The notes: generated by a model not told the origin, from the letters alone. 64,000 nucleotides of DNA from SAR324 cluster bacterium (GCA_015231825.1 JADGAV010000002.1:9914-73913); one strand, 5' to 3'; positions 2,067 to 55,406 are shown, counted from the stretch's first letter. Translations and numbers: made by a program.

Positions 2067-2091
2067 TCTGAAATGCAATTTTTGAGGATTC

Positions 2092-13270: not shown

Positions 13271-13304
13271 CTCCCTTGTTAACTTTTAAAATCCCCTTTT
13301 TTGT

Positions 13305-15337: not shown

Positions 15338-15421
15338 AGGTGCGGAGTGGAAACGGCTTGCAAAATAAGAAATTGTTGACTTCATTGTACGGTCTGCAGC
15401 AATGCTTTAAAGGATTTTATT

Positions 15422-15910: not shown

Positions 15911-15986
15911 ACATCAGGAAATTTCTCCACTTATTGTTCTCCATATTGATCGTTTACATTTCTAATGCTTTCGACTTCAAAGCTAC

Positions 15987-16024
15987 TGTTAAGAAATTGC
16001 ATGCATGTTAAGGAATTGCATGCA
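15987..16024. repeat. Tandem 19-bp direct repeat (TGTTAAGRAATTGCATGCA x2), each with a TGCATGCA palindrome; putative operator
   Basis: Copies at 15987-16005 and 16006-16024 differ at one position; they lie ~70 bp upstream of the vapB-like pseudogene. Confidence 0.5.
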
Positions 16025-16094
16025 ATATAATGAAAATTGCCTTATGCCTCGAGTTGCATAATTCATTTATTAAATTTTTATAGAAGTGGATGCA

Positions 16095-16286
16095 ATGAAA
16101 TCTTTACAAGTGAGAGAGGTCCCGGAACACATTTAAAAGAAATTGCTCGAAGAATCCAAAAATAATCACCGCAGCTTGTCACAGCAGGTTATAGCCGCGT
16201 TAGCCCGGGGGTTGGACACTCCGCTTTCCCCGAAAGCAAAAAGAAGAGAGCTTTTGGAAAAAATAGGAATGAGGGGATTCAATTAG
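16095..16286 (+). pseudogene. VapB/FitA-like antitoxin remnant with in-frame TAA at codon 14
   Basis: ATG at 16095 encodes 'MKSLQVREVPEHI*KKLLEESKNNHRSLSQQVIAALARGL...', which matches the FitA/VagC 'VRNLPDEVHRALRVRAAQHGRSMEAEVREIL' pattern. The stop codon at 16134-16136 is in frame. Confidence 0.5.
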
Positions 16287-16338
16287 AGATTAAGCCTGCA
16301 AGAAAGCCGGTCGAATTAATTCGAGGAGACAGGGATCG

Positions 16339-16722
16339 ATGATTTTAATGCTGGATACAAGCGTTGCTTTTGAACTTGTTCTCAATCGCGAAAATTCCAA
16401 TAAGTTCAGTTACTTTTTGTCAGAAGCAGATTGAGTTGTTGCTCCGGGTATCTTCATTTAGGAAGTCACCAATGTTTTCTGGAAATACTTCCGGTTTGGT
16501 GATATTCCATTGGAACAATACGAAGAACTTATCGATTCTTCAATCGGAATTGTTGATGAGTTCGTAAACAGCCAGGAACTCTGTCGGTAAACTTTTCCCA
16601 TGTCCTGCATGATGCAGTATCCGACTTGTGACATACTTTTCATTACACTCGCCAAAAGATATAGTGGAACGCTGTTAACTCACGATAAGAAATTGCTCAA
16701 GATTGAAAAAAACAATCAGTAA
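16339..16722 (+). pseudogene. VapC-like PIN-domain toxin remnant with three in-frame stops (TGA, TAG, TAA) and no frameshift
   Basis: One frame of 128 codons reads 'MILMLDTSV...SEAD*VVAPGIFI*EVTNVFWKY...ELCR*TFPMS...YPTCDILFITLAK...LLTHDKKL'. The PIN signatures (DTSV, xYEV, D..L..A, LLT.D) are kept, and the TAG sits at the conserved Tyr of 'YEV'. Confidence 0.55.
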
Positions 16723-18429: not shown

Positions 18430-19799
18430 TGACTCCAAAAGAACAAACGGCGATGTTGTTGAAAAACAGCGAAATTATGATCGACGAGATTAAGGGAGAA
18501 GGAACCCAAAGTGAGGTCTGTGCCCAGCACTCAGTAGATTTGAGTGTTGTTTACGAAGGAAACGATTTTTCGGTCAGCAAAAGCAACACCACGTCTTCCT
18601 ATGGAATTCGTGCGATTGTCGATGGAAAGCTAGGGTTTATGACCTCCAATTCAAGCAGTGATCAGATGCTGCGGGAAATTGCTTTAGAAACGAGGAAACT
18701 CGCGATGCTTTCTGTTTCGAGCGAACATCATCAGATTGCAACTGCTATGGAAAAGCACGGATATTCCGAGAATTATGACCCTTCAACAGAAATGCTGCTG
18801 CCTTCTGATTTATACAATATGCTGCAACTGATGGTTGATGAGGTTCACAAAGAGAAGAACATCTCTCTTGATCGTGCCGAAATTTCCTGCTCCCGGCAAT
18901 ATTTCACCCTGACGAATTCCAATGGATTTTCTCAGCAAGCGGCTGCTTCTGATTTTTCCTGGTTTGCCATGGGGATGGGAAAGACGAAAAACGAAGTGAC
19001 CAGCTTTGACTATGATGGAGGAACGGTCAGAGACCGTTCCGCTCTCGAGAACGAGATCATTCAGACTATGGAACGGTTTCGACAGTATGTAGGAAGCTCA
19101 TTGGGGCCTCGCCAGGCAAAGGATTATAAAGGTGCGATCCTTCTCCATCCAGCAGCAGTGATGAGTATTCTTGGGCAAACAATCAGTTTCAACGCAAACG
19201 GAAAAAATCATTTGGATGGCATTAGTGCCTGGAACGAGCAAATGGGTCAGCAAGTGGCTTCTGAGACACTGCTGGTTGCCGAAGATCCTTTGGATGAAAA
19301 TCGACCGGATGGCTGGAGTCCATTTGATCGGGAAGGAGTGACAACGTCTAGGCACCAAATTATCGATGCGGGACACTTGAATTTTGCGGCACATAATTGC
19401 TTCAGCGCGCATCAAGCCGGTATTCAGCCTACAGGAAATGCTGCAGGAGGAGCAACGGGATTACCGCAAATCGGATTTTCCAATTTGAAGATTTCCGGAG
19501 TCGAGGGAAAAGCGCTTTCTGAAGAGTTACTCTATCAGAAGTTGGGGACAGGTCTGGTGCTCAAACGTTTCAGTGGAAGTTGCGATCCGATTTCTGGACA
19601 ATTTTCAGGAGTGGCAAAAAATTCATGGTGGGTGGAAAATGGTAAACGAAGCCATGCGGTGCATGAAACTATGGTTTCTGGAAACGCATTTGATGTCCTG
19701 AAACAAATATTGGCAATTGGTTCTCAGCTTCATGTTAATCTGGGGGGCAGCCAGGCTCCCTACATACTGATTGATGGTGTCAGCGTGACCGCGGGATGA
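18426..19799 (+). CDS. pmbA: PmbA/TldE partner protein
   Basis: TldD/PmbA-family fold without HExxxH. The start is ATG 18426 (ATGA overlap with the tldD stop); the track's 18324 start is an out-of-frame extension. Confidence 0.8.
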   Translation: MMTPKEQTAMLLKNSEIMIDEIKGEGTQSEVCAQHSVDLSVVYEGNDFSVSKSNTTSSYGIRAIVDGKLGFMTSNSSSDQMLREIALETRKLAMLSVSSEHHQIATAMEKHGYSENYDPSTEMLLPSDLYNMLQLMVDEVHKEKNISLDRAEISCSRQYFTLTNSNGFSQQAAASDFSWFAMGMGKTKNEVTSFDYDGGTVRDRSALENEIIQTMERFRQYVGSSLGPRQAKDYKGAILLHPAAVMSILGQTISFNANGKNHLDGISAWNEQMGQQVASETLLVAEDPLDENRPDGWSPFDREGVTTSRHQIIDAGHLNFAAHNCFSAHQAGIQPTGNAAGGATGLPQIGFSNLKISGVEGKALSEELLYQKLGTGLVLKRFSGSCDPISGQFSGVAKNSWWVENGKRSHAVHETMVSGNAFDVLKQILAIGSQLHVNLGGSQAPYILIDGVSVTAG

Positions 19800-23534: not shown

Positions 23535-24605
23535 CTAGTAAATTGGCTCTAGCCATTGGAAAGGGTCATTTGTTTTTCCATATTGAATCCCGGTGACCTC
23601 ATCATAAAATCGTTCTGCCATCGGCCCAATATCGTCCTGGATTACATATTCTTTACCTTTGTATTGGAGGACTCCAACCGGGGAAATGACGGCTGCTGTT
23701 CCGGCTCCAAAAATTTCGGTGAGTCTGCCATTTTCAATTCCTTCAATCACCTCTTCAATGGTGATACGACGTTCGGTTGTTTTCAGCCCCCAATTTCGGC
23801 TCAGCTGGAGAACGGAGTCTCTGGTAATTCCTGGTAGAATGCTTCCGGTCAATTGAGGAGTGACGATTTCATCATCAATCACGAAAAAGATATTCATGGA
23901 ACCGACCTCTTCTACATATCGCTGTTCTTTTCCATCCAACCAAAGGACTTGTGAAAAACCCTCCTTTTTTGCTTCAATCTGTGCCAGATTACTGGCAGCG
24001 TAGTTTCCGGCTGTTTTGACACCTCCGATACCACCTGCTGCTGCGCGTGTATAATCTTCTGACACTTTGATTCTGACCGGCGCAAATCCTTTCGCATAAA
24101 AAGATCCCACTGGCGAAAGAATAATATAAAAAAGGAAGTATTCTGATTTTTTTAAACTGAGTGCGGGCTCTGTTGCAATCAAATTCGGTCGAACATACAA
24201 AGAACATCCGGGTTCGTTGGGAATCCAATCTTTGTCCTGCTGTAATAAAAGTTTTAAGGCCTCCAGACCGAAATCAGCATCAATTTCTGGTAACCCGATT
24301 CTGCGTGAAGTTTGTTGGAGCCGTTCAAAATTTTTTCGTGGACGAAAAAGTACATGATTTCCACTGACGGTGAGGTACGCTTTTAATCCTTCAAATGCTT
24401 CGTGACCATAATGCAGAACAATGGCTGCCGGGTCCAATGACAGGGCCTGGTACTGTTCTATTCGTGCGTTTTGCCAGCCTCCATCAGGCTCCCAATTCAT
24501 TAAAAACATATGATTTGTAAAATGAGAACCGAATTCGATTCCTTCCAAACTTTCTGGAGGATTTTTGCGTGATTCAGGTGAAACCGGATTGATTTGAATG
24601 TTCAT
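23535..24605 (-). CDS. ilvE: Branched-chain amino acid aminotransferase (class IV, long form)
   Basis: 356 aa; 'FTNHMF...GHEAFEGLKAY' (catalytic Lys), 'GGIGGVKTAGNYAAS' and 'EVGSMNIFFV' as in BCAT/IlvE. Confidence 0.8.
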   Translation of the reverse strand: MNIQINPVSPESRKNPPESLEGIEFGSHFTNHMFLMNWEPDGGWQNARIEQYQALSLDPAAIVLHYGHEAFEGLKAYLTVSGNHVLFRPRKNFERLQQTSRRIGLPEIDADFGLEALKLLLQQDKDWIPNEPGCSLYVRPNLIATEPALSLKKSEYFLFYIILSPVGSFYAKGFAPVRIKVSEDYTRAAAGGIGGVKTAGNYAASNLAQIEAKKEGFSQVLWLDGKEQRYVEEVGSMNIFFVIDDEIVTPQLTGSILPGITRDSVLQLSRNWGLKTTERRITIEEVIEGIENGRLTEIFGAGTAAVISPVGVLQYKGKEYVIQDDIGPMAERFYDEVTGIQYGKTNDPFQWLEPIY

Positions 24606-36756: not shown

Positions 36757-38889
36757 TTATTGGGATTGAGATTTCGTGCCTTTTTTAATATCCGTTCCCA
36801 ATCTTTGCAAATAGGCGATTACGGCGACGATTTCCTTATCAGCAATGTTTTTGACTCCTTGCGCCTCCAAACCTTTACCGATTTCGTCAGCCTGTTTCTT
36901 CAGATTAGCGGCCGCGTTGTCGATGTCTGCCTGAGTGTAGGGAACTCCAAGGCTCTGCATGGCGTCCAATTTTGCCGCGGTGCTGGAAATATCCAGAGTA
37001 TCCCGCAACAACCAGTCATATTTGGGCATCAATGAACCTGCTGAAGTCGATCGCGGGTCTTCCATGTGACGGTAGTGCCACATATCAGGATATTTGCCTC
37101 CAATCCTGTGCAGATCGGGGCCGATTCTTCGAGATCCCCATAAAAATGGATGATCATATACAAATTCTCCAGCTTTGGAATATTCTCCATACCGCTCTGT
37201 TTCGGCCCGGAAAGGGCGAATCATCTGGGAGTGGCACGTTGAGCAGCCTTCGCGAATATAAATGTCTCTTCCTTCCAATTCCAGGGCAGTATAAGGTTTT
37301 ACTGCCGCAATGGTCGGAATGTTGCTTTTAATGACAAAGGTCGGCACCAATTCCACGATACCTCCGATAAGGACCGCAAGCAGTGTAAAGACGGCAAACT
37401 GAATCGGACGATGTTCGAGCAGCAGTTGGAAACTCGCATGCTGTTTGCTTTCCCGAACCAGGGCCGGAGCTTGTGCTTTTTCATCGCTGGGAACTTCCGC
37501 GCCGGCAATGGTTTTCCAGATGTTGTAGACCAGAAGAAAAATTCCTCCAAAGTACATCAATCCCCCAATCAGGCGCACATAGTACATTGGTATGATTCGC
37601 ACAACGGTTTCAACAAAATTTCCGTAGGCCAGATATCCTTCGGAGTCAAAATCACGCCACATCAATCCCTGGGTGATTCCTGCAATCCACATGGCCACCA
37701 CATAAAAGATGATTCCCAAAGTGGCGACCCAGAAATGAGCTGTTGCCAGTCCGACACTATACAAAGGGCGTTTCCAAAGTCTTGGCACCAAATAGTAGAT
37801 AAGGGCGAAATTCATGAATCCATTCCATCCCAGGGCTCCGGAGTGAACATGCCCGATGGTCCAGTCGGTGTAATGAGAAAGGGCGTTGACCGATTTGATC
37901 GACATCATCGGTCCTTCGAATGTGGCCATTCCGTAAAAGGTGATGGCAACGACAAGAAATTTAAGAATAGGGTCAGTGCGCAGTTTGTCCCAGGCTCCCC
38001 GCAAGGTGAGCAAACCGTTGATCATTCCTCCCCAGGAAGGAGCAATCAGCATCAGACTGAACACCATCCCCAAACTTTGAGCCCAATCCGGAAGGGCGGT
38101 AAAAAGAAGATGATGCGGTCCGGCCCAGATATAGAGAAAGACCAGAGCCCAGAAATGCACAATGGAAAGACGATAGGAGTACACCGGTCGATTCGCTGTC
38201 TTCGGCATGTAGTAATACATCAATCCAAGTATTGGAGTGGTCAGAAAGAAGGCAACAGCATTGTGCCCGTACCACCACTGCACCAGGGCATCCTGGACAC
38301 CGGCATAAATAGAGTAACTCTTGAGAAAGGAAACGGGGAGTTCCAGGGAATTGACGATGTGGAGCATGGCAACAGTCACGATAGTCGCAATGTAAAACCA
38401 GAGTGCCACATACATTTGCCGTTCCCGGCGTTTGATCAGGGTGCCGAAAAAATTGATGGCAAATACGACCCAAATTAACGTAATGGCGATATCGATTGGC
38501 CACTCCAGCTCTGCATATTCCTTGGCGGTTGTGATGCCGAAAGGGAGGGTCAGTGCTGCTGCAACGATGATCAGCTGCCACCCCCAAAAATGAATTGTAC
38601 TCAGCGCATCACTGAACATGCGCGCCTTACAGAGACGTTGTGTGGAATGATAAACTCCCATGAACAGTCCATTGCCGACAAATGCAAAAATGACGGCGTT
38701 GGTATGAAGGGGACGCAGACGACCAAAAGAAAACCATGGTCCTATATTCATTTCCCTAAATGCCAATTGTGCAGCGATTAAAACACCAACCAGCAGTCCC
38801 ACCACTCCCCAGAGGATGGTAGCAATTAAAAATTTTCGTACAATACTATCATTGTAATAATAGGTTTCCAGTGTTGCCATATCCTTCAA
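36757..38889 (-). CDS. ccoNO: Fused cbb3-type cytochrome c oxidase subunits I+II (CcoN-CcoO)
   Basis: 710 aa; 12-TM haem-copper oxidase core with His ligands ('[13 protein letters not shown]') continuing into a monoheme cytochrome c domain ('[15 protein letters not shown]...GPDL'). Confidence 0.85.
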
Positions 38890-43201: not shown

Positions 43202-43663
43202 ATGCTAAAAAATCTCAATCCCATGCTCACTCCTGAACTCTTGTATGTGCTCCGTGCTATGGGACATGGAGATGAGCTGGTTTTGGTTGATAGTAATTTC
43301 CCTGCAGAATCGAGTGCGGTTCAAACGGTACATGGAAATTTGATCCGCTTGGATGGGAACACGATTGCTGAAGTCGCTGAAGCAGTTTTGTCAGTCTTTC
43401 CATTGGATAGTTTTGTTGAACATCCGTTGCTTTATATGGAAGTTGTCGGAAAACCCAATGAGATGCTGGAAGTGCACCGAGATTTTAAAACAATTGTCGA
43501 CAATCATTCTGATAGAAATTGGAAGATGGCTTCGATTGAACGCTTTGCCTTCTATGAACGTGCCAAACAAGCGTATGCAATTGTTGCAACGACTGAAAGA
43601 AAACCTTATGGAAATTTTGTCTTGGTCAAAGGTGTGATCAACCCTGAAGGCCATGTTGTTTAA
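43202..43663 (+). CDS. fucU: L-fucose mutarotase / RbsD-FucU family pyranase
   Basis: Near-colinear match to E. coli FucU: 'MLK...PELL.VL..MGHGDE', 'RFAFYERAKQA.AIV.T.ER..YGN..L.KGV'. Confidence 0.8.
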   Translation: MLKNLNPMLTPELLYVLRAMGHGDELVLVDSNFPAESSAVQTVHGNLIRLDGNTIAEVAEAVLSVFPLDSFVEHPLLYMEVVGKPNEMLEVHRDFKTIVDNHSDRNWKMASIERFAFYERAKQAYAIVATTERKPYGNFVLVKGVINPEGHVV

Positions 43664-43720
43664 ATCAGGAGACTGTGGCTCAATTTGCGACTACCACAAA
43701 CGTTTTCCGAATGGGATGAA

Positions 43721-44653
43721 ATGGACAAGTTAATCACAATCTTTGGGATATTTGCAGTGGATTTTAATTTTCGCTCAGAGAAGATTCCAATCACGGGCGA
43801 AACTCTGTTGGGTAAATTCAGCACAGGACCGGGAGGAAAAGGTTCAAATCAGGCAATTGCTGCTCGGCGGGCAGGAGGAAACGTTAATTTCATTACTAAA
43901 ATTGGTGTGGATCTTTTCGGTGAAATTGCTCTGGAACGATATAAACAGGAGGGTATCAGGACGGATTTGATCATCCAGGATAAAAATTATCCGACGGGTG
44001 CTGCTGCAATTTTGCTGGAGAATGAAACCGGGAAAAATGCCATTGTCGTCTGTCCGGGAGCTGCATCTGAGTTTACAATCGATGAAATCATGCATAAAGA
44101 ATCCCGGATTCAAACAGCATCCTTTTTTATGACTCAATTGGAAACGCCTTTGACGGTAACATTCCGGGCAATGGAAATTGCAGCAAAACACAAGATTCCG
44201 GTTATTTTGAATCCTGCTCCTGCCAATGAAATACCTTCTTCTGTTTATCCTCTTTGCGATTATTTCATCCCCAATGAAGTGGAAGCATCCAGTCTGGCGG
44301 GAATCCCTGTGAAAGATATCAATGACGCTGAAAAGGCGGCGGACATATTTTTAGAACGAGGTGTTAAAAATGTTATCATTACATTTGGCGAAAAAGGAGT
44401 CCTCGTCAAAAACAAGGACTTACTCGAACATGTCCCTGCCACTCAATTGAGGGATCCTGTTGTGGACACTACCGGGGCAGGAGATGCCTTTAGCGGAAGT
44501 TTTGTTGCTGCCTTGTCACAGGGAAAAGAACTGCCGGATGCCATTCGTTATGCCAACACGGCCGCCGGTATTTCCGTGACCAGGCTGGGAACGGCACTGT
44601 CCGCACCTTATCAGCATGAAATTGAAAAATTATTGCTTCAGGCAATCAATTGA
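43721..44653 (+). CDS. pfkB-family carbohydrate kinase (ribokinase-like)
   Basis: 'GGKGSNQAIAARRAG' and C-terminal 'DTTGAGDAFSGSFVAAL' (anion hole/catalytic Asp) of ribokinase. ATG 43721 aligns with ribokinase N-termini; the track's 43685 start is a TTG extension. Confidence 0.75.
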   Translation: MDKLITIFGIFAVDFNFRSEKIPITGETLLGKFSTGPGGKGSNQAIAARRAGGNVNFITKIGVDLFGEIALERYKQEGIRTDLIIQDKNYPTGAAAILLENETGKNAIVVCPGAASEFTIDEIMHKESRIQTASFFMTQLETPLTVTFRAMEIAAKHKIPVILNPAPANEIPSSVYPLCDYFIPNEVEASSLAGIPVKDINDAEKAADIFLERGVKNVIITFGEKGVLVKNKDLLEHVPATQLRDPVVDTTGAGDAFSGSFVAALSQGKELPDAIRYANTAAGISVTRLGTALSAPYQHEIEKLLLQAIN

Positions 44654-44693: not shown

Positions 44694-45818
44694 ATGGACC
44701 AGGCCTCCCTACAAAACGAAAATCTCAAAATAACAGATATTAAAGTCTACAAGTTTGATATTCCGCTGAAGGAAATATTTCAAATTGCGACCATGAGTCT
44801 CAGCAATGCCAACAATGTATTGATTAAAATTGAAACCAGCAAAGGCATTGATGGTTGGGGTGAGGCCGCTTCCTTTCATGCACTGGTGGGAGAGACCCAA
44901 TTGATAAATTTTGCGGCTGCCAAAGAAATCAGAGAAATTCTTGTCGGCAGAAATCCATTGGAAATTGAGTCAAATGTTCAGCTAATGGATTCTTACCTCC
45001 CTCACAACACAACGATTAAAAGTGCAATTGATATGGCTCTATATGATATTGCTGCAAAGTGTGCAGGAATGCCGCTATATGCTTTCTTGGGGGGTAAAAA
45101 GCGTGAAATCGAAACAGACATGACCATTGGGATTTGTGATCCAGGGGAAGCTGGAGAAAAGGCATTAGCAATTCTGTCAATGGGATTTAGGATGATCAAA
45201 ATTAAATTGGGTTTAAACTATAATGATGATTTTTTGAGGTTGAAGAACATCCGAGATGCCGTAGGAGAGGAGATCATCCTGAGGGTTGATGCAAATCAGG
45301 GATGGGACCGCATGACGGCAAAAAAAAGCCTCGATGCTTTCAGTCAATTTGATATTGAATTCTGTGAGCAGCCCTGCCGTGCCAGTGACAACAACGGAAT
45401 GAAGTATGTCAGTGAAAATACAAATATTCCGATCATGGCGGACGAATCTTTATTTTCACCGTTTAACGCCCTTCATCTAATTAAGGAAGACGTGGCCCCT
45501 TATTTCAATATCAAATTGTCCAAATCCGGCGGCATTCATAATGCAATAAAAATCAGTCATTTGGCTGAAGCCGGGGGCATTCTTTCCATGGTCGGATGCA
45601 TGTCGGAATCCAGGCTTGGTTTGACAGCGGCAGCGCATTTTAGCTTAAGCAACGAATCGATCAAATTTTTTGATCTGGATTCCTACCTGGAACACTCTGA
45701 AAATCCCGTTGTCGGTGGCATGGAAATAAAAAATGGATTTGTTCAAATGCCGGATGAACCGGGGATTGGGGCTTATCCAGATCCCCACTATATCAAAACC
45801 CTTGAGGAGCATAGATAA
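44694..45818 (+). CDS. Enolase-superfamily (MLE subgroup) enzyme, dipeptide (L-Ala-D/L-Glu) epimerase-like
   Basis: KxK base 'IKIKLG', metal ligands in 'RVDANQGWD' and 'MADESL', second base 'NIKLSKSGG'; capping domain present; 374 aa. Confidence 0.6.
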   Translation: MDQASLQNENLKITDIKVYKFDIPLKEIFQIATMSLSNANNVLIKIETSKGIDGWGEAASFHALVGETQLINFAAAKEIREILVGRNPLEIESNVQLMDSYLPHNTTIKSAIDMALYDIAAKCAGMPLYAFLGGKKREIETDMTIGICDPGEAGEKALAILSMGFRMIKIKLGLNYNDDFLRLKNIRDAVGEEIILRVDANQGWDRMTAKKSLDAFSQFDIEFCEQPCRASDNNGMKYVSENTNIPIMADESLFSPFNALHLIKEDVAPYFNIKLSKSGGIHNAIKISHLAEAGGILSMVGCMSESRLGLTAAAHFSLSNESIKFFDLDSYLEHSENPVVGGMEIKNGFVQMPDEPGIGAYPDPHYIKTLEEHR

Positions 45819-46915
45819 TGCTGGGCCCGGAGATAAAATTTGTAGATCGAGACTACATCTTGTTTGAGAATAAAAAGCTTCTTTACCTTGCCGGGATTGA
45901 TTATCACAGAATGTCCAACAATCCGATCATCATTCAGGCAATGTCAGATGCGGCTCATGAATTCGGATTGAATCCGACAGGTTCTCGAACCACAACGGGA
46001 AATCATTCGCTCTATATTCAGTTGGAAAAAACGGTATCGAATTTTTTTAATTCAGAAGCGGCGGCGGTCTTTGCCAGTGGTTATATTTCCAATATGGTAC
46101 TGCTTCAAACTATCAAAGACGATTTTGACATTTTTTTCATAGATGAGGTCACGCATTCAAGCATGATGGATGCGACGAAACTTTGCGACAAGAAGGTCAT
46201 ATCGTTTAAATATTTGAATCCCCAGCATTTAAAGGAGCAAATTGATAAAAATGTTTCAGCAAACAGCCGGCTTTTGGTAATGACGGATGGTGTTTTTCCG
46301 TCAACAGGTGAAATTCCTCCTTTGAAAGATTACGCCGATGTTGTCAAAAAGTATGACGGAAAAATACTAACCGATGATGCTCATGCAATGGCTGTCATTG
46401 GCAAAACAGGGAAGGGAACTTGGGAGGAAAAAGAATTAAGTAGGGACTTATTTTTTCAAACAGGAACTCTCAGTAAAGGTTTTGGAATTCATGGTGGCGT
46501 CATTCAGGGAGATTCTGATTTAATAAATAACATTCAGGAAAGAAGTGCTGCATTTGCCGGAAGTACAGGCATATCACTGCCGCTTGCTGCCGCGGCAGCA
46601 AAGTCAATTTCATATTTGAAATCCAATCCTCAAATCATTACTGAACTACAGAAAAGTGCACTTGCTCTCAAAGAAAAGTTCAGAGGGATCGGGTTCAAGA
46701 TGCCCAGTAGTCCAGTGCCGATTTTTTCAATCACTTTGGAAGATAGACAAAAAAACCAACGGTTGAAACAGCTTTTGTTGAACAACGGCATCTACCCGCC
46801 ATTCATCAATTATCCCGGTTCTCCTCCAGGAGGTCATTTCAGATTTATCATCACCAGCATCACAACACGCGAACAGATCCAGTTGTTATTTGAAACCATA
46901 AAATCAGCACTCTAA
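45818..46915 (+). CDS. Alpha-oxoamine synthase family PLP enzyme (BioF/Kbl/SPT-like)
   Basis: Aligns with E. coli BioF across 'YL.F.SNDY', 'V.TEGVFSMDGD.APL', 'DDAH..GV.G..G.G' and the Lys block 'TLSKGFGIHGGVI' (BioF 'TFGKGFGVSGAAV'). ATAATG overlap with the upstream epimerase. Confidence 0.65.
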   Translation: MLGPEIKFVDRDYILFENKKLLYLAGIDYHRMSNNPIIIQAMSDAAHEFGLNPTGSRTTTGNHSLYIQLEKTVSNFFNSEAAAVFASGYISNMVLLQTIKDDFDIFFIDEVTHSSMMDATKLCDKKVISFKYLNPQHLKEQIDKNVSANSRLLVMTDGVFPSTGEIPPLKDYADVVKKYDGKILTDDAHAMAVIGKTGKGTWEEKELSRDLFFQTGTLSKGFGIHGGVIQGDSDLINNIQERSAAFAGSTGISLPLAAAAAKSISYLKSNPQIITELQKSALALKEKFRGIGFKMPSSPVPIFSITLEDRQKNQRLKQLLLNNGIYPPFINYPGSPPGGHFRFIITSITTREQIQLLFETIKSAL

Positions 46916-46935
46916 TACAGCATCAGTGTACTTTG

Positions 46936-47733
46936 TTAAATTATAAACATGATCATCCTCATCACTTCAAAGTAATCTGCAGTTTCAAATACGACAGATT
47001 TTGGCCCGCCTTTTTTCATTCCTGGATAAAATGATGCCTTATACGCGCTAACAGGGTCTCTAAATTTTATTTCAACTTCAAAAAACTCCGGCAACTCGAT
47101 TCGACACATGGAAACGTCTTTTTTAAGTGCTTCCTCAACCCCTGATCTAATTCGTTTGCAAGCTAACTCTGGAGAGATACTCAGGGTAGAGGCACCAATT
47201 CCTTCACTGACAGGGACTGTGTTGATGTGTTCATTGATTGCTTTGACATCTTGACAAATTCCCTTATCACCCGAAACCAAGACAACGGGGACGTTAACAA
47301 AAGCAGACACGTAGGTATGAAGTAGAAATTCGGAAGCGAGTTCTCCATTGATCTTTAAAGAGTCGATTCCCAATACCAGAGTATGAGCCAGTGGATTATT
47401 TTCGGTTCCTGCTTTTGAATGGTAGCCAATCAGAATGCATGCATTAAAGGATTGATCCAACTCCTGAACCATACAAAAAGGATGTCCGCTCCATCCCCTT
47501 ATTAGTCGCGCACAATCAGGAAGACGGGAGGCAATAATGTTCCTTCCTGTATGATGAGCATCCTTGATAAGAATTTCTGAGACTCCAGCATTGATGGCGC
47601 CTTCACAAGCCGATACCACCTCTTCGGTCATCTGTTTTCTGAATTCCTGATACTCAGCGTTTTTGTTCATGGCTTCGTCCCAGTGGGTGATTCCTGTAGT
47701 TCCTTCGATATCGGCACTGATAAATAATTTCAT
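46936..47733 (-). CDS. dppA: M55-family D-aminopeptidase (DppA-like)
   Basis: 'MKLFISADIEGTTGI' N-terminus and overall 265-aa pattern of Bacillus DppA D-aminopeptidase (peptidase M55). Confidence 0.65.
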   Translation of the reverse strand: MKLFISADIEGTTGITHWDEAMNKNAEYQEFRKQMTEEVVSACEGAINAGVSEILIKDAHHTGRNIIASRLPDCARLIRGWSGHPFCMVQELDQSFNACILIGYHSKAGTENNPLAHTLVLGIDSLKINGELASEFLLHTYVSAFVNVPVVLVSGDKGICQDVKAINEHINTVPVSEGIGASTLSISPELACKRIRSGVEEALKKDVSMCRIELPEFFEVEIKFRDPVSAYKASFYPGMKKGGPKSVVFETADYFEVMRMIMFII

Positions 47734-47822
47734 GGTTCTTGATCAAAATTTAGGTTAGCTGATAAGGGACTTTGACAATCACTGTCAATCAATTCGATCG
47801 TAAAAGGCCGATGAAAGAAATT

Positions 47823-48749
47823 CTAAACAGGTGTTTCCTCACGCACAAAATGGGTATCAGAAACCTGTTGCATCGGTAGTTGAATCGGAATGAAATTAGG
47901 AGCCCGCATAGCACTGGGGATTTCGTCAGCGATTAGCATGGAGTCCTTTTTTCGGAGTCGAGGGTCAGGTACTGGTACTGAACCAAACAGTTTTTTGGTG
48001 TAGCTATGCCGTGGGTTCCGAAAAATTGATTGGCGGTCGCCTATTTCTACAATTTCTCCAAGATACATGACTGCAACCCGGTGGGCGATGCGTTCGACAA
48101 CAGCAACATCATGAGAAATAAACAGGAGAGAAATGCCCAATTCGGCTTGCAAATCCATCAGTAGATTGATGACCTTCGCTTGAATTGTAACGTCCAGTGA
48201 GGCCACTGCTTCATCGGCGATTATGAGCTTGGGATCCAATCCCAGGACTCTGGCTATACAAATACGTTGCCTCTGCCCTCCCGAAAAGGCATGAGGATAG
48301 CGATTCATGTGGTCTTTTTCCATATCAACACGCTCCAACAGCTCCTGGACCCGCTGGGGAATCGCATCTTTGGGGATTATTTTATTGACAATCATTGGAT
48401 CCGCGATCGCTTTGCCGACGGTCATGCGTGGATTTAATGAGCTGAAAGGATCTTGAAACACCATTTGAACATTGCGTTGGAAGGTCCTTAAGTTTCGTGA
48501 CGAAACCCCAAGAGTCTCTTTTCCATTGAATTTTATTGAACCGGAACTTGTTTTGTCCAAATGCATAATGCTTCGGGCAATGGTCGATTTTCCGCATCCG
48601 GATTCTCCAACAAGAGCCAGTGTCTCCCCCGGGTAAATATCGAATGAAACATTTTCGACTGCATGGACTCGTCCATATACTCTGCCAAACAGACCTGCTT
48701 TGAGATCGAATCGAGTCACTAAATTTTTAACCTCTATCAATGGTTTCAC
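47823..48749 (-). CDS. dppF: Oligo/dipeptide ABC transporter ATP-binding protein (DppF/OppF-like)
   Basis: Walker A 'GESGCGKST', signature 'FSGGQRQRICIARVL', Walker B 'IIADEAVASLD', C-terminal Opp extension. Confidence 0.85.
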   Translation of the reverse strand: MKPLIEVKNLVTRFDLKAGLFGRVYGRVHAVENVSFDIYPGETLALVGESGCGKSTIARSIMHLDKTSSGSIKFNGKETLGVSSRNLRTFQRNVQMVFQDPFSSLNPRMTVGKAIADPMIVNKIIPKDAIPQRVQELLERVDMEKDHMNRYPHAFSGGQRQRICIARVLGLDPKLIIADEAVASLDVTIQAKVINLLMDLQAELGISLLFISHDVAVVERIAHRVAVMYLGEIVEIGDRQSIFRNPRHSYTKKLFGSVPVPDPRLRKKDSMLIADEIPSAMRAPNFIPIQLPMQQVSDTHFVREETPV

Positions 48750-48810
48750 GATTTGTTCTCCTGAAATTTTTTCACATCAGCCGCAGTCTTTCGTCGGGAT
48801 GTTTTTTTGC

Positions 48811-49683
48811 TCAGTCTTCTTCAAACTCAAGAATTGGAAATTTTTCAGGTTTGTCTTTGTCCGTCATGCTTCCCAATTTTGGAACCGCAGAAATTAAGGC
48901 TCTGGTATAAGGATGTTGGGGATTCTCAAAAATATCATAAACAGATCCCGTTTCAACAAATCTCCCTTTTTGCATCACACAAACACGATCTGCAATTTCG
49001 GCAACCACTCCCATATCGTGGGTGATAAATAAAACGGACATGACAATTTCTTTTTGCAAGGCTCGAATCAGATTGAGAATTTGCGCTTGTATGGTCACAT
49101 CCAGTGCGGTTGATGGTTCGTCTGCAATCAAAAGTACAGGTCGGCAGCTCAATGCCATGGCAATCACGACCCGCTGCCGCATTCCTCCAGACAATTGATG
49201 CGGGTATTGTTTCATCCGTCTTTCCGCGTCAGGAACCCGTACAAGTTGTAAAGTGTTGAATGCAATTTCTTCGGCTTGTTTCGGACTCTTGCCTTGATGG
49301 ATAATAATGGCTTCGGCAATTTGATGCCCCACTGTAAACACTGGATTGAGGCTTGCCATTGGATCTTGAAAAACAATGGAAACATCAGCGCCTCGAATAT
49401 CGTTCATCCTGGAAATTGGCAATTTTACAATGTCGACAATTTCACCTGAGCGCAGGCGCAAATGGATGGCCCCCTCATTGATGCGGGCCCCATCGTGCTC
49501 GGGGAGTCGCATGATTGTCATTGCAGTCACCGATTTTCCGCTTCCTGATTCACCAACAAGCGCCAGAGTTTCCCCTTGGTCAATATGAAATGAAACCCCT
49601 TTTACTGCATCAACTGTCACATTGTCACTGAGGGAAAATGAGACATGAAGGTTTTCGACTTCAACGATCTTGTTTTTATCCAT
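48811..49683 (-). CDS. dppD: Oligo/dipeptide ABC transporter ATP-binding protein (DppD/OppD-like)
   Basis: Walker A 'GESGSGKSV', signature '[15 protein letters not shown]', Walker B '[11 protein letters not shown]'. Confidence 0.85.
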
Positions 49684-49797
49684 CTGGTTTAATTGACTCT
49701 TTGATTAAAATTAAAAAGGATTCAATAATGATTATAGGAACTGGAAAAACTGGAGTACAAAACAGATCAAAATCCCGTTCTTTCCCGTTCTCAGGGT

Positions 49798-51450
49798 TCA
49801 GGAACGGCGTGCGAGAAACATTGGGCCGACCCGAATGCCGGGCTGTCCATTTTCGTCGTTAGCACCGAGTTCCAAAATTTCGTCAGGATAGAGAGAACCG
49901 TTCATTTTAAAGCGGTTATTTCCCAAAGGAGTGCAGATATGGCTGTAAAAGTATTCTATCAAACACGTCAAGTTGCCATTTTGAAAAGATAGGGTGGTTA
50001 TATTGATATCCGGTCCGTAGGTTCCGAGGTGAGGCTCCAGCTCCGGATCGACCGGAGTTTCGTCAATCACTTGGGTTTTATCCCAACTTTGATTTTTCCA
50101 TATCATTTTTCCGGACAGGGAGAAATCAAGATCAAGGAATTCATAGTCGGAGCCTTCACCATAGAGGCGACCATCAACACCGAACTGATTCCCAGTCTTT
50201 GGTTTAATCTGCAGGGGCATTCCGTCGCCGAGAAGAAAGAGCTTTCCATTGCGTTCAATAATTTCCACAATTTCATTGTTTTCCTGATTTTTGTAGTGAC
50301 CCGGCAAAGTTTGAAAATGCTCTGTTGAAACTTTTTGATAGGTTCTTCGTGGCATCGGCGGTGACCCCATATTCATGGCTGCAAGCGCCATTCGGAGTCC
50401 GCTATCCGCCAAATGATTGACGATATTGTTGGTCATATCCATTGTTGAAATAATTTCAATGGCCAAACCAGCCAGAGGCAGCAAGGATATTTGGGAGGCA
50501 AATCCGTAAACAGCACCCCCATGTCCGACGGAACGCCAAGCATCCAATTGACTGACACCAAACCCCAATCCGTAGTCACTGAGCCCTGGATACCCTTGAG
50601 GACGATGACCCACAACCGTCCACATTTGCTCCAATGATGAAGGAGACACGATGCGGTGACCCTCCGGGGTGAAGCCTCCACGCAGCAAACAGATCATATA
50701 GCGTGACATATCAGATAAAGTGGAATAAATGTTTCCTGCCGGAAAACCTCCGAGATCAAAAACGGGTGCTGGCACATCACTATCGACCGTCCACATATAA
50801 GCAGGGGCCAAATTTGCGAGAATTGTGGGATTTGAAGAGATTGAACTGTCAGACATACCAAGAGGTTTCAGTATATTTTCGCTTAGGTAGTCCGCATAGG
50901 TCTGCCCGGAAACACGCTCAACTACGGAACCAACGACCGCCATACCCGCGTTGGAATAGCTGAATATACCGGCGCTGGGATCATTTTTAAGAACGGAGCT
51001 GGCCAATTCATTGACGGTTTTTTCAAGCGGTGGATTGCTGTCATCGAGATAGTGTCCGCTCTTCGGTTCGCGGACCATGCCTGCGGTATGGCTCATCAGT
51101 TTTCGCAACGTGACCTCGTCTCCCAGTGGTCCGGCATTTTCCCCGGAAAATGGATTTTTTGGCCGGAAATCCGGAAGGTAGTTTGAGACGTCGACATCAA
51201 GATCGATTAATCCTTGTTCCACCAACTGCATCAGGCAGATACTGGTAAACATTTTTGTTTGAGAAGCAATTCGAAACCGGGTTTTATCAGTAAATTGATG
51301 GTTGAGACCTTTGCGCTGCATCGTCCCTGTCGCAAGCATTCCATCTCTGCTGACAAGGGAATAAGAGATTGAAGGCAGATTCTTGTCTTCTACTTCAAAT
51401 GCGATTTTGTCTTCAAATTGTTGCTGATTAAAATTGTCGATTTTGGTCAT
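49798..51450 (-). CDS. Beta-lactamase-fold serine hydrolase with C-terminal beta-barrel domains (DAP-type D-aminopeptidase-like)
   Basis: Ser-x-x-Lys 'ASQTKMFTS' ~70 aa from the start, 'YSN' and 'HGG' motifs, ~200-aa C-terminal extension as in Ochrobactrum D-aminopeptidase. The start is ATG 51450 (MTKIDNF); the track's longer ORF overlaps dppC out of frame. Confidence 0.6.
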   Translation of the reverse strand: MTKIDNFNQQQFEDKIAFEVEDKNLPSISYSLVSRDGMLATGTMQRKGLNHQFTDKTRFRIASQTKMFTSICLMQLVEQGLIDLDVDVSNYLPDFRPKNPFSGENAGPLGDEVTLRKLMSHTAGMVREPKSGHYLDDSNPPLEKTVNELASSVLKNDPSAGIFSYSNAGMAVVGSVVERVSGQTYADYLSENILKPLGMSDSSISSNPTILANLAPAYMWTVDSDVPAPVFDLGGFPAGNIYSTLSDMSRYMICLLRGGFTPEGHRIVSPSSLEQMWTVVGHRPQGYPGLSDYGLGFGVSQLDAWRSVGHGGAVYGFASQISLLPLAGLAIEIISTMDMTNNIVNHLADSGLRMALAAMNMGSPPMPRRTYQKVSTEHFQTLPGHYKNQENNEIVEIIERNGKLFLLGDGMPLQIKPKTGNQFGVDGRLYGEGSDYEFLDLDFSLSGKMIWKNQSWDKTQVIDETPVDPELEPHLGTYGPDINITTLSFQNGNLTCLIEYFYSHICTPLGNNRFKMNGSLYPDEILELGANDENGQPGIRVGPMFLARRS

Positions 51451-51460
51451 AACTGATTTC

Positions 51461-52336
51461 CTATTTGTGTATGGTATGAGGGTCCAGCACATCCCGCAGC
51501 GCGTCTCCAACGAGATTCCATGAAAAAACGAACAGGAATATCGCCATTCCCGGGAAAAACAAAGTGTACCAATATTTAAATGGATCGTCGCCTTGACCGA
51601 CGATCCAATTTCGGGAATAACTGATAAACTGGCCCCAGTCAGCATATCCTTCTTCAGTTCCCACACCTAAAAAACTCAATGCCGACGCGGCGAGTACCAT
51701 GGATCCTGTTGCCATGGTCGCCAATACCAAAACTGGAAAAAATGCGTTGGGAAGAATAAAGCGAAAAATCAACGAGAAGTCATTGACACCATAAGTTCGC
51801 GCTGCCTGAATGAATTCCATCTCTTTGATGCGCAGAATTTCACTGCGGATAACCCGGGCATAACTCATCCAGCCGAAGGCGGATAGAGCGATTATCATCG
51901 GCCCCAGTCCTTTGCCCAACAGGGTTGTTAAAACCATTGCCGCGATTAAAAATGGCACTGCCATAAAAACATCGACGACTCGCATTAGAACTTCATCGAT
52001 GATACCACCATAGAAGGCAGCAATTGAACCGACAATGATGCCAATTATGGATGAGACAAGAACAACGCCGAGCCCCACCTTAAATGCAGTCCGGGTTCCC
52101 CAAACCAATCCGTAATAGATGTCATACTGTCCTTGTGTTGTGCCTAAAAAATGATCTTTGGACATAGCTTGCGGTGTCGCCCAAAATGATGAGCGCGGGG
52201 TCTCATATGGGCTCAGTTGGAAGGATTGGGGGGGAGCAATGATTGGAGCCAACGCGGCAACCATCACGAATAACAGTAGTGATACAATCCCAAAACTCGA
52301 GAGTGGATTTTTGAGCAGATATTTAAAAACTTTCAT
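51461..52336 (-). CDS. dppC: Oligo/dipeptide ABC permease (DppC/OppC-like)
   Basis: 291 aa, 6 TMs, EAA-like loop 'IQAARTYGVNDFSLIFRFILPN'. Confidence 0.85.
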   Translation of the reverse strand: MKVFKYLLKNPLSSFGIVSLLLFVMVAALAPIIAPPQSFQLSPYETPRSSFWATPQAMSKDHFLGTTQGQYDIYYGLVWGTRTAFKVGLGVVLVSSIIGIIVGSIAAFYGGIIDEVLMRVVDVFMAVPFLIAAMVLTTLLGKGLGPMIIALSAFGWMSYARVIRSEILRIKEMEFIQAARTYGVNDFSLIFRFILPNAFFPVLVLATMATGSMVLAASALSFLGVGTEEGYADWGQFISYSRNWIVGQGDDPFKYWYTLFFPGMAIFLFVFSWNLVGDALRDVLDPHTIHK

Positions 52337-53370
52337 TTGAGCACCACCCTTGGATCAATGAGGGGATACAAAAGATCAACCACTAAATTCAATAAAACGA
52401 GCACCAATGCAAAATAGAGGGCAAAGCCTAAAACTGCAGGAAAATCGAGATTGGCTGCCGCGTGAGCAGCGAATTGACCCAAACCATGGTAGTCAAAAAT
52501 CGTTTCAGTAATAACAACGCCTCCCATCATATAAGCTAATTCCATTCCCGCCATGGTGGTGACAGGCAACAACGCATTTCGACGAGCATGTTTGTTTTGC
52601 ACAATTTTTTCAGACAAACCTTTGGCGCGGGCGGTACGAATATAATCTTGACGCAAGGTTTCCAGCATACTGGTGCGCATCACTCGCGTCATGTTTGCCA
52701 AATTGACGTAGGTTAGCGTGATTATTGGGGCAATCAAATGGCGAAGCGAATCCAGGAAAATCTGCCATCGTCCATTGAGCAGCGAGTCAATCAAATTAGC
52801 ACCTGTATAACGAATAAAATTACCGCTTTCGACTTCTGTAACTGCCCATTGAGAAAGGCGTCCTGGAGGGAACCAGTTAAGGTAGCCGTAAAATATGAGG
52901 AGCATGATCAAGCCAAAAACAAAGGTAGGGAAAGACCAGCCGAGGATTGTAAATATTCGAATTGCATGATCTTTTGGCCTGTTTAAATTGGCACCAGCCT
53001 TGGTACCCAGCCAGACCGCACCCAGAAAACTGGGAATAAAGGCCAGAATTACCAGTTCAACCGTGGCTGGGAATAATGAAATAAGGACTTCGGAAACCGG
53101 TGATCGTGCTGTTTCGGACCAGCCTAAATTTCCGCTCAAAATGTTTTGGATCCATTCCCAATATTGGGTAAGAAAAGGTTCGTCCAATCCATATTTTTTG
53201 ATTAGCGCCTCTATTTGCTCGCGACCTCCTTTCAATTCGGAGTTACTGGTAATGTAGGCGGATATTCGCTGGACGGGTGACAAAAGCATTTGTAGACTGA
53301 AAATCATCAACGATAATGCAATGAACACCACAGGGAAAAACAGCAATCTCCGAAAAACGTAATTTACCAT
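52333..53370 (-). CDS. dppB: Oligo/dipeptide ABC permease (DppB/OppB-like)
   Basis: 345 aa, 6 TMs, 'DYIRTARAKGLSEKIVQNKHARRNALLP' EAA motif; ATGA overlap with dppC. Confidence 0.85.
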   Translation of the reverse strand: MVNYVFRRLLFFPVVFIALSLMIFSLQMLLSPVQRISAYITSNSELKGGREQIEALIKKYGLDEPFLTQYWEWIQNILSGNLGWSETARSPVSEVLISLFPATVELVILAFIPSFLGAVWLGTKAGANLNRPKDHAIRIFTILGWSFPTFVFGLIMLLIFYGYLNWFPPGRLSQWAVTEVESGNFIRYTGANLIDSLLNGRWQIFLDSLRHLIAPIITLTYVNLANMTRVMRTSMLETLRQDYIRTARAKGLSEKIVQNKHARRNALLPVTTMAGMELAYMMGGVVITETIFDYHGLGQFAAHAAANLDFPAVLGFALYFALVLVLLNLVVDLLYPLIDPRVVLK

Positions 53371-53462
53371 AGCTCTTTAACAGAATACCCTACATACTGA
53401 AAATCTGCATGCAGGGTATTTATTAGTTAGTTGCAATGATGCAAAATCAAAGCACCTTTTCT

Positions 53463-55406
53463 TTATAGCTCTTTAGAGATATTGTAAAAATTCCAGGCGC
53501 CGTACAGAATCTTGTTGTGGACATAGCCTTTGACCCAATCTCTCGTAACATTGGCAGTCACCTCTTCCCACAAAAATTGAGTCGTCGCATATTCGTGACT
53601 CATCTCTTGTAGTCGGGCATAGATCGGTTCTCGCTGAGCCGGGTCATTGAGTTTCCAGGCTTTTTCTAAAAGAGGATCAAATTTCTCTTTCATTAAAGCT
53701 CGGTAACCATCGCCACTAAAACCCGCTACCAAACCTGAACTCGACAAATAGTAGGATGCGGCTCCCAGCGGACCACCCGGATCGGAATAATCAGGTCCCC
53801 AGCCCATATAGGCCAAAGGAGATTCTGGGTTGGAAGATCCGTAGGATTTTTCCCTCATAGAAGCCGAAGTCAATGCTTGAACTTTCAGACGAAATTTTGG
53901 ATTAATCCGCGCCAGGTTTTGTTGCAGAACTCCAAATGCCGCAATTGCCTGGCTTCTTCCCTCTGCTGTGTAGCCTGTAACTTCAAAACCAACTTCCCAA
54001 AGTTTACCACCGAAAGCCTTTTTAAAGTGCTCGGCTGCTTTTTCAAGATCGTTTGTATAAATAGGGCTGTCCGGACGATAACCCATCAAACCTCGCACGG
54101 TAGGTCCACGGGACTGAACAGTTCGGCCTAAGTATACTTGCTCAAGCAAGACCTGATAGTCCTGCGCATAGTTGAATCCCTTGCGAACATCAAGGTCAGC
54201 AAGAAAATCGGGAGGGACACCCTTGCCATCAAGTTTTCCGCTGCCAATGGCGGGATTATCATCAGCTTTTACGGGCCATCCAAAAAACAGACCCCGACCA
54301 TAGACTTGTTCTAAATCAGTTACGGTAATGCCCTTGGTTTTGCGCATTTCTTCAATAAACTCAGGTGGTGTCACTGCAACATCCGCATCGCCAGCTAATA
54401 ATTGAAGACGACGGTTCGTCCATTCGGGGACAAGTCTTAAAACAACCCGCTCCAACGGGGCAGGCTTGCGAAAAAATCCATCAAATCTTTTAAAGGTGAT
54501 TTTCTTCTCGGTACGGTTCCAGTCTTCTACGATAAAGGGTCCGCTGCCATTTTCCTGTTTGAAAAGCGGCGATTGATCCAGTTTCGGTTTGTGATGCTTT
54601 ATCCATGAAGCGGCTGTATCCGGCCATGCACCCATGTCAATGGCCCATTCCCGATCAACGATTGATGTCGCAAATGGCAGGGCCATAATTCCGAGCGTTG
54701 CGGGGAATGATGATTCCAGGGTCAGGATCAGTTTGCCATCGACCACTTTGATTTTTTTTGCCAAATCATCGTGTACTGCAATTAAACCGGCTTCGTTGAC
54801 GTCATCGAATTTCTCAACGCCTGCCAAGCCAATCGCCCATTTCTCAATATTGCTGTATTTACCTGCAGTGATCATTTCTGTGACCGCATTTGCCATCCAC
54901 GATTCGCCTTGCAAAATTGCACGCATCAGACTGTATCTTGCATCATCTGCGGTAATTTCACCGTATCCAGGCTCAATTTTCGCTTTGTCCGCAGCGCTTA
55001 AATCATCAAAGTACTGCCACTTGATTTTGCCATCCGACCCTTTAATACCAACTTTATGGGCTTTGACTCCAGGTCGCATCGGAAAGGTATATCTGACGGC
55101 ACCACCGGGTAACTCTTCAATCAAGCCGTTAGCCACTGAGGGCACTTGGCTGGCCAGAGCTGGCACGAATTCGGAAATGTTGGAACCGTTGTAATCCAGC
55201 AATCGGCTATAAACGTTATAGGAAGAATAAGTACTTGGAGTATCACCGATATAGGCAGGATCAAGGGAGGAAATATCATCGGTCGTGAGGTATATCAACG
55301 TATTGGGGTTTTTTATCTGCCCATACGCAGTCCCGCCTAATGCCAAAACAGCAATTCCTGCCAAGACGATTAGAAGATTTTTCATGTAATTTAGATTTAT
55401 TTTCAT
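53463..55406 (-). CDS. Family-5 solute-binding protein (peptide/nickel type), large variant
   Basis: Signal peptide, SBP_bac_5 fold; 647 aa, larger than E. coli DppA; heads the peptide ABC operon. Confidence 0.8.
   Translation of the reverse strand: MKINLNYMKNLLIVLAGIAVLALGGTAYGQIKNPNTLIYLTTDDISSLDPAYIGDTPSTYSSYNVYSRLLDYNGSNISEFVPALASQVPSVANGLIEELPGGAVRYTFPMRPGVKAHKVGIKGSDGKIKWQYFDDLSAADKAKIEPGYGEITADDARYSLMRAILQGESWMANAVTEMITAGKYSNIEKWAIGLAGVEKFDDVNEAGLIAVHDDLAKKIKVVDGKLILTLESSFPATLGIMALPFATSIVDREWAIDMGAWPDTAASWIKHHKPKLDQSPLFKQENGSGPFIVEDWNRTEKKITFKRFDGFFRKPAPLERVVLRLVPEWTNRRLQLLAGDADVAVTPPEFIEEMRKTKGITVTDLEQVYGRGLFFGWPVKADDNPAIGSGKLDGKGVPPDFLADLDVRKGFNYAQDYQVLLEQVYLGRTVQSRGPTVRGLMGYRPDSPIYTNDLEKAAEHFKKAFGGKLWEVGFEVTGYTAEGRSQAIAAFGVLQQNLARINPKFRLKVQALTSASMREKSYGSSNPESPLAYMGWGPDYSDPGGPLGAASYYLSSSGLVAGFSGDGYRALMKEKFDPLLEKAWKLNDPAQREPIYARLQEMSHEYATTQFLWEEVTANVTRDWVKGYVHNKILYGAWNFYNISKEL

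Follow-up and report, generated by a model that had tools for sequence, protein, structure and literature searches.

Several described systems take up or degrade peptides that contain D-amino acids. The dpp (dciA) operon of Bacillus subtilis co-transcribes a Dpp-type ABC importer with the M55 peptidase DppA, and in Pyrococcus abyssi the peptidase Pab87, which degrades D-amino-acid peptides only, is encoded beside a Dpp transporter (PMC2651629). Dedicated D-amino-acid routes are also represented by the DgcN/DgcA pathway, in which D-glutamate undergoes an 'irreversible racemisation' that involves the enolase-superfamily racemase DgcA (PMC12363236), and by E. coli ddpXABCDF with its Dpp-like importer Ddp. 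Here we analysed a stretch of 64,000 nucleotides (nt) from a metagenome-assembled genome of a SAR324 cluster bacterium (GCA_015231825.1 JADGAV010000002.1:9914-73913; below called the window), in which nine genes at positions 44694-55406, seven on the minus and two on the plus strand, code for a Dpp-type importer, an S12 serine hydrolase, an M55 peptidase, a predicted dipeptide epimerase and a pyridoxal phosphate (PLP) enzyme of the alpha-oxoamine-synthase (AOS) family. We conclude with moderate confidence that a conserved cassette found in several phyla, of which the window carries one example, imports and catabolises short D-amino-acid-containing peptides. The substrates are likely peptidoglycan-derived stem-peptide fragments as well as D-Ala-rich di- or oligopeptides.

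Full-length homologues of the S12 hydrolase (44-73% identity) were found in Rhodobacteraceae, Mesorhizobium, Ensifer, Inquilinus, Devosia and Bipolaricaulota, and the neighbourhoods of seven of them, from Alphaproteobacteria, Bipolaricaulota and metagenomes, were read. All seven contained a long SBP5 protein (639-645 aa, 55-78% identical to that of the window), DppB (65-82% identical across the related cassettes), DppC, the S12 hydrolase and an M55 peptidase, with SBP5 as the first gene of every related cassette. An earlier reading of the same DNA, made from the sequence only (below, the sequence-only reading), had regarded a hydrolase gene inside a Dpp operon as unusual, but given that the S12 gene accompanies SBP5 and DppBC in each of these neighbourhoods, this is a conserved design and not a local oddity. 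In five of the seven, an MR_MLE (enolase-superfamily) gene was directly followed by an AOS-like gene (Bipolaricaulota L003; L012/L013 and L014/L015 from ENA; Wenxinia marina L016; L101 from JGI). The gene arrangement is far beyond chance, and no paper describing the cassette was found in the literature.

The two cassettes without this pair contained other enzymes together with MlrC, namely a D-Ser-dehydratase-like protein in Mesorhizobium loti (L001) and a DAO-family oxidoreductase in Inquilinus (L100), and enzymes of these two kinds occurred exactly in the cassettes from which the pair is absent. Because they replace the pair in this way, the pair might itself serve to dispose of D-stereocentres. 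Further neighbours in the related cassettes were LdcA (S66) and YkuD, Ddl, and DgcN-like proteins (452 and 421 bits, in two cassettes). A scan of genome contigs with the hydrolase as query gave eight distant loci (31-41% identity, Acidobacteriota and Planctomycetota), of which three had an MR_MLE gene nearby and none the cassette. Two observations on individual contigs are added here. In L012/L013, a PfkB kinase gene (1346-2299, minus strand; 43-45% identity) is separated from the M55 gene by about 1 kb, which might reflect either common descent of the neighbourhood or a functional connection, for example through glycosylated peptides. In L101, a D-Ala-D-Ala ligase gene (12923-13930, plus strand) directly follows the AOS-like gene, in two fragments that probably result from an assembly frameshift; this suggests a possible ATP-driven cycle in which Ddl, a D-Ala-D/L-Ala epimerase and a D-aminopeptidase would together convert D-Ala to L-Ala.

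Genes in the window were called from an open reading frame (ORF) listing and hidden Markov model (HMM) scans with Pfam and NCBIfam (Table 1). The minus-strand order SBP5, DppB, DppC, hydrolase, DppD, DppF and M55 agreed with the sequence-only reading, as did the enolase-superfamily gene that converges on it from the plus strand. The ninth gene, for the BioF/KBL-like PLP enzyme, lies inside the same interval and had been overlooked. The stop codon of the epimerase gene overlaps the ATG of the PLP-enzyme gene (TAATG), and 20 nt lie between the end of the latter and the M55 stop codon. Upstream of the epimerase on the plus strand are genes for FucU/RbsD, a ribokinase and a TRAP transporter; those for FucU/RbsD and the ribokinase (43202-44653) directly precede the epimerase, and the ribokinase matched TIGR02152 with 317 bits, which is above the cutoff. 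A sugar-type ABC transporter is encoded past the SBP5 gene. A search with Rfam over 39-57 kb revealed no riboswitch or leader, and the promoter and terminator scans were at or below the shuffle expectation.

Table 1. Predicted genes of the cassette, with positions counted from the first letter of the window.
Feature	Position	Strand	Length	Basis
Enolase-superfamily (MLE subgroup) dipeptide epimerase	44694-45818	+	374 aa	MR_MLE_N + MR_MLE_C
Divergent AOS-family PLP enzyme, translationally coupled to epimerase	45818-46915	+	365 aa	PF00155
M55-family peptidase (DppA-like D-aminopeptidase)	46936-47733	-	265 aa	PF04951, 296.8 bits (cutoff 25)
DppF-type ATPase	47823-48749	-		ABC_tran + oligo_HPY
DppD-type ATPase	48811-49683	-		ABC_tran + oligo_HPY
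S12 beta-lactamase-fold serine hydrolase, two C-terminal lipocalin-like beta-barrels (predicted)	49798-51450	-	550 aa	S12 motifs, fold model
DppC-type permease	51461-52336	-		PF00528 + OppC_N
DppB-type permease	52333-53370	-		PF00528 + PF19300
SBP5 periplasmic substrate-binding protein, unusually long	53463-55406	-	647 aa	PF00496, 123 bits; N-terminal signal peptide

The hydrolase gene begins with an ATG 10 nt past the dppC stop codon, preceded by an AGGA motif. The length of the protein, previously given as 551 aa, was corrected to 550 aa. NCBI holds a protein with 100% identity to the hydrolase and another with 100% identity to the PLP enzyme. A longer ORF with a GTG start (622 aa, to 51666) was rejected as the hydrolase gene since it overlaps dppC and the identical NCBI protein has the shorter length. 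The hydrolase has no signal peptide and would thus act in the cytoplasm on imported material. The motifs SxxK, YSN and HGG were invariant in 30 homologues, which places the enzyme in MEROPS family S12 (PF00144). Its closest relative by sequence was the alkaline D-peptidase 4y7p (86.7 bits), further close relatives being the DL-peptidase Lip3, Flp, a D-stereospecific S12 amidohydrolase, Pab87, ClbP and the R61 DD-peptidase, and family VIII esterases scored just slightly below the D-peptidases. The predicted model was nearest to Pab87, an archaeal S12 peptidase with 21% sequence identity, and the R61 DD-peptidase, alkaline D-peptidase, D-amino-acid amidase and dHy1 also ranked high; the alignment with Lip3 (9sn1) was the longest of any match (437 residues).

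The sequence-only reading had described the enzyme as a DAP-like hydrolase between the permease and ATPase genes. Its placement between dppC and dppD and its S12 class were confirmed, but the DAP type was not: the protein matched DAP (1ei5) with 23 bits and the NCBIfam D-aminopeptidase model PRK13128 with 47.7 bits (cutoff 443), and in the C-terminal 200 residues Pfam detected no DAP domain B/C or DUF3471 above chance level. Its nearest relatives are D-peptidases, yet esterases are almost level with them. As judged by these comparisons, the hydrolase is an S12 enzyme and probably a D-stereospecific peptidase.

The M55 protein aligned end to end with B. subtilis DppA (1hi9, 105 bits), and D8, E10, H60, H104 and E133 were identical in the two proteins, as expected of an M55 member. 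These five residues are reportedly the binuclear-zinc ligands of DppA (Remaut et al. 2001). The score was below the cutoff of the equivalog model for Bacillus DppA (NF058634, 154.5 versus 430 bits). The transport genes have the composition of a Dpp/Opp-type ABC importer, with SBP5, two BPD_transp_1 permeases and two ATPases that carry an oligo_HPY C-terminal region. The best solved relatives of the SBP5 protein were HbpA and E. coli DppA, with an alignment confined to residues ~275-645, and DppC fell below the cutoff in every match to the NCBIfam models for Opp4C, NikC and DdpC.

For the enolase-superfamily protein, the best solved relatives were 3q45 from Cytophaga hutchinsonii (272.6 bits, 40% identity), 3jva (252.6 bits) and YkfB (1jpm, 223.5 bits), while sugar-acid dehydratases scored far lower, so that the protein grouped with the dipeptide epimerases. 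UniRef labels 3q45 as a D-Ala-D/L-Ala epimerase, and activity on D-Ala-D-Ala is attributed to it. In agreement with the dipeptide-epimerase motifs mentioned in the sequence-only reading, the KxK motif (K169/K171), the metal ligands D199, E225 and D250, the second lysine K274 and the DxD motif (D327/D329) were all present, and they were invariant across the AOS-linked homologues and 3q45. The likeness to YcjG/YkfB that had been proposed therefore stands for dipeptide epimerisation, but not for Ala-Glu specificity. The position of the Arg24 that binds the Glu side chain in YkfB is occupied by Met34 in the window protein and by Gly in 3q45, and the scores against the L-Ala-D/L-Glu epimerase equivalogs were below the cutoffs (234.8 versus 500 and 102.5 versus 343 bits). 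Likewise, the model of the N-acetyl-D-Glu racemase DgcA gave 143.2 versus 400 bits (NF042940), and no match to its partner DgcN (DUF1611) was seen among the window ORFs scanned (all but roughly a dozen). From its sequence, the protein is assigned to those dipeptide epimerases that act on small or hydrophobic residues and, since the Glu-binding Arg is replaced by Met, not to the Ala-Glu epimerases.

The PLP enzyme was below cutoff against NCBIfam models for bioF (244.7 versus 426 bits), KBL (209.5 versus 460 bits) and SPT, and the AOS catalytic set was complete: Lys220, His113, Asp186/His189 and Arg342 are invariant, and in an alignment they match catalytic residues of SPT and KBL. In place of the canonical (S/A)NNYLGL motif, the Asn of which binds the substrate carboxylate in AONS, KBL and SPT, the window enzyme has GIDYHRM; the alternative replacement is GT(G/S)Y(F/Y)xL and the general form G(I/T/N)(D/G/S)Y(H/F/Y)x(L/M). 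The N-terminus is ~25 residues shorter than in canonical AOS enzymes. When 80 metagenome loci were retrieved with generic AOS motifs, 38 were divergent and 42 canonical, and in a neighbour-joining tree the divergent sequences formed one clade apart from the canonical enzymes. An MR_MLE gene was located within 3 kb in 14 of the 38 divergent loci compared with 1 of the 42 canonical loci (Fisher's exact test, p = 8e-5), and in 6/12 versus 0/25 when only loci with both flanks long enough were counted. A search of the literature found no paper on the pairing of an epimerase with an AOS-type enzyme.

The window pair was most similar to the pairs of Portibacter lacus (Bacteroidota) and of contig L018, with 67% identity for the epimerase and 58-60% for the PLP enzyme, compared with just 46% and 29-35% for the closest pairs from Dpp cassettes. 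In Portibacter (L017), the pair is located behind FecR-SusC-SusD together with a DUF819 membrane protein and an S12+DUF3471 hydrolase, with no Dpp genes, and in L018 it lies behind another S12 hydrolase. Given that the window pair is thus nearer to the Bacteroidota type than to the Dpp-cassette pairs, an association with S12 or peptide-uptake genes is seen in two lineages of the pair. The sub-lineage to which the window epimerase belongs was always found beside an AOS-like gene; the pair also occurred without S12 or Dpp neighbours (L031), and one close homologue was solitary (L020). The Portibacter cluster, behind its ECF-sigma/FecR/SusC/SusD set, has the look of a 'peptide utilisation locus', a counterpart of the loci known for polysaccharide utilisation. 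Beside it (12357-16370, plus strand) are genes for two proteins secreted by the type IX secretion system (Por_Secre_tail), one of them with a beta-lactamase domain.

On the basis of the gene content, family assignments, catalytic motifs, predicted fold and conservation described above, we infer D-stereospecificity, substrates, an order of steps and a PLP-enzyme reaction as follows. The long SBP5 protein would capture the peptide in the periplasm and DppBCDF would import it. In the cytoplasm, the two-barrel S12 hydrolase may cleave amide bonds that adjoin D-residues, while the M55 peptidase may take off N-terminal D-residues, as suggested by family, fold and context. The conserved catalytic residues account for the chemistry of the epimerase, which would act on the small or hydrophobic dipeptides that are left and invert their C-terminal residue (e.g. 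D-Ala-D-Ala to D-Ala-L-Ala). The inverted dipeptides would then become hydrolysable, and their carbon and nitrogen could enter L-amino-acid metabolism. Directly after or alongside the epimerase, the PLP enzyme might act on an amine-bearing partner, which would be the residue at the N-terminus of the dipeptide or else a D-amino acid that has been set free. A dipeptide of the form H2N-CHR-CO-NH-R' mimics the alpha-aminoketones that AOS enzymes produce, so that the PLP enzyme could bind its N-terminal amine and invert or otherwise transform the residue there. We speculate, at low confidence, that PLP chemistry transforms the amine-bearing residue and that no CoA-dependent condensation takes place. 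The broader idea, that epimerase and PLP enzyme work as a module of two enzymes whose reaction would be new to the AOS family, and by which D,D-dipeptides are brought into forms usable by L-specific metabolism, is tentative and rather improbable as a whole. Such a module would be a functional alternative to the DAO-family or D-Ser-dehydratase-like enzymes of the pair-less cassettes. The dedicated import and degradation of D-Ala/D-Glu peptides envisaged in the sequence-only reading is retained in part, with moderate confidence for D-peptide salvage and without the Ala-Glu epimerase element.

Several observations weigh against D-peptide import and catabolism as the function of the cassette. None of its proteins attains an NCBIfam equivalog cutoff, and AOS-type enzymes are not known to take part in peptide catabolism. 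The gene of the characterised C. hutchinsonii epimerase was considered as part of the same cassette and rejected: it is solitary in its genome, with no AOS-like or S12 neighbour, and its activity is therefore not transferable by context. The S12 esterases EH7, EstB and IS11 score nearly equal to the D-peptidases, and stereospecificity is thus unreadable from fold or sequence. An alternative is a general L-peptide or amide/ester uptake system without a dedicated D-role, in which the S12 protein would be an esterase or amidase for a non-peptide substrate, similar to family VIII esterases, and the M55 protein a generic aminopeptidase. In favour of it, the esterases 7pp3, 4ivi, 1ci8 and 7spn differ from the D-peptidases by just a few Z or bit-score units, and the SBP5 protein is only weakly similar to any binding protein of known ligand. 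Such a generic system is nevertheless unlikely, given that M55, dipeptide-type epimerase, DgcN-like, Ddl, LdcA and D-Ser-dehydratase-like or DAO-family enzymes co-occur with the hydrolase family and that Pab87, the nearest structure, is D-specific. We regard it as quite unlikely that the cassette instead degrades or detoxifies D-amino-acid-containing non-ribosomal (lipo)peptides, in the manner of the DL-peptidases Lip3/Lip7 or of D-stereospecific resistance peptidases. The long alignment with Lip3 would fit such a role, as would the MlrC-like peptidases that adjoin the cassette in Mesorhizobium and Inquilinus, and S12 enzymes of this kind are known to cleave D-L bonds in lipopeptides (PMC12903863).

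Two further alternatives concern the pair. It follows the ribokinase gene on the strand opposite to the dpp genes, an arrangement from which co-regulation with them does not follow, and this too weighs against the D-peptide reading. With the epimerase gene 41 nt downstream of the ribokinase gene on the same strand, and with L012 and L013 having a PfkB kinase gene close to the cassette as well, the pair might belong to the upstream FucU-ribokinase/TRAP sugar operon and be adjacent to the dpp operon by chance. We consider this extremely improbable, because the pair is found beside the same S12 or Dpp genes without a ribokinase in at least eight independent loci from different phyla and the enolase-superfamily protein has the dipeptide-specific DxD motif. 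The PLP enzyme could also be an ordinary glycine C-acetyltransferase or 8-amino-7-oxononanoate synthase of Gly/Thr or biotin metabolism, as its best HMM matches (bioF and KBL) and the presence of all PLP-binding residues would allow. This is very unlikely given that every model is far below its cutoff, that the Asn of NNYLGL is lost and the N-terminus shortened, and that the enzyme belongs to a separate clade with the MR_MLE linkage described above. Uptake and catabolism of D-amino-acid-containing peptides therefore remains the reading that we favour.

Elsewhere in the window, a class IV aminotransferase (23535-24605, minus strand) was considered as a D-amino-acid transaminase and rejected, since it is a type II branched-chain aminotransferase (440 bits, cutoff 307). 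A tandem TldD/PmbA metallopeptidase pair of 467 and 491 aa is encoded at 17026-19799 (plus strand). Two adjacent ORFs of 732 and 347 aa (11072-13270 and 13305-14348, both plus strand), downstream of an 858-aa FtsX-type permease, had no Pfam match at E <= 1e-6. An ORF of 710 aa (36757-38889, minus strand) combines COX1 (CcoN-like, residues 16-445) with FixO (CcoO, 490-701) and is apparently a fused N-O subunit of a cbb3 oxidase; a FixG-like ferredoxin, a P-type ATPase and a DsbD_2 protein are encoded near it.

In the deep ocean, where bacteria of the SAR324 lineage are ubiquitous, a sizeable part of the refractory dissolved organic nitrogen consists of D-amino acids from the remains of peptidoglycan. 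A dedicated and transferable import-and-degradation cassette would serve as a genetic marker for use of this D-amino-acid pool, and a published D-amino-acid gene catalogue contains no dipeptide or D-aminopeptidase terms (PMC12363236). If true, the two-enzyme module would open the carbon of D-peptides, part of refractory dissolved organic matter, to deep-ocean SAR324 and to many other bacteria by a route that is cheap in cofactors. The cassette includes two uncharacterised families, the two-barrel S12 hydrolase and the epimerase-tied AOS-clade PLP enzyme, and the existence of cultured carriers (Wenxinia marina, Mesorhizobium loti, Inquilinus limosus and Portibacter lacus) makes the question directly testable.

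Compared with described systems, the locus is a variant of those for D-peptide uptake and degradation, such as B. subtilis dpp/DppA, the Pab87 locus and E. coli ddp. To the B. subtilis arrangement, with whose DppA the M55 protein aligns over its full length, it adds the S12 hydrolase between dppC and dppD, the 647-aa SBP5 protein, the dipeptide epimerase and the AOS-like enzyme. Pab87, as a CubicO peptidase, combines an S12 domain with a lipocalin domain and forms an octameric cage, its class being marked by three CubicO-specific motifs, and it has one barrel whereas the hydrolase described here has two predicted barrels. DAP of Ochrobactrum anthropi consists of an S12 domain and two beta-barrels, an architecture that the hydrolase may or may not share; its sequence match is as low as given above. 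The epimerase shares all catalytic residues and the ammonium-binding DxD with YkfB/YcjG and 3q45, but differs from YkfB in having Met for Arg24 and from the C. hutchinsonii epimerase in its AOS-like and S12 neighbours. Unlike the DgcN/DgcA and ddp systems, the window has no DgcN or DdpX among the ORFs scanned, and its DppC reached 178.6 bits against the 434-bit DdpC cutoff. With BioF, KBL, SPT and ALAS, the PLP enzyme has in common fold type I, the Lys that forms the Schiff base, the stacking His, the Asp-x-x-His and, near the C-terminus, the Arg that binds a carboxylate; it differs from them in the absence of NNYLGL, the shorter N-terminus, its place in a separate MR_MLE-tied clade and a pathway in which no CoA-dependent step is evident. 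What is new relative to these systems is that a dipeptide epimerase is linked, in a conserved manner, with a divergent enzyme of the AOS family.

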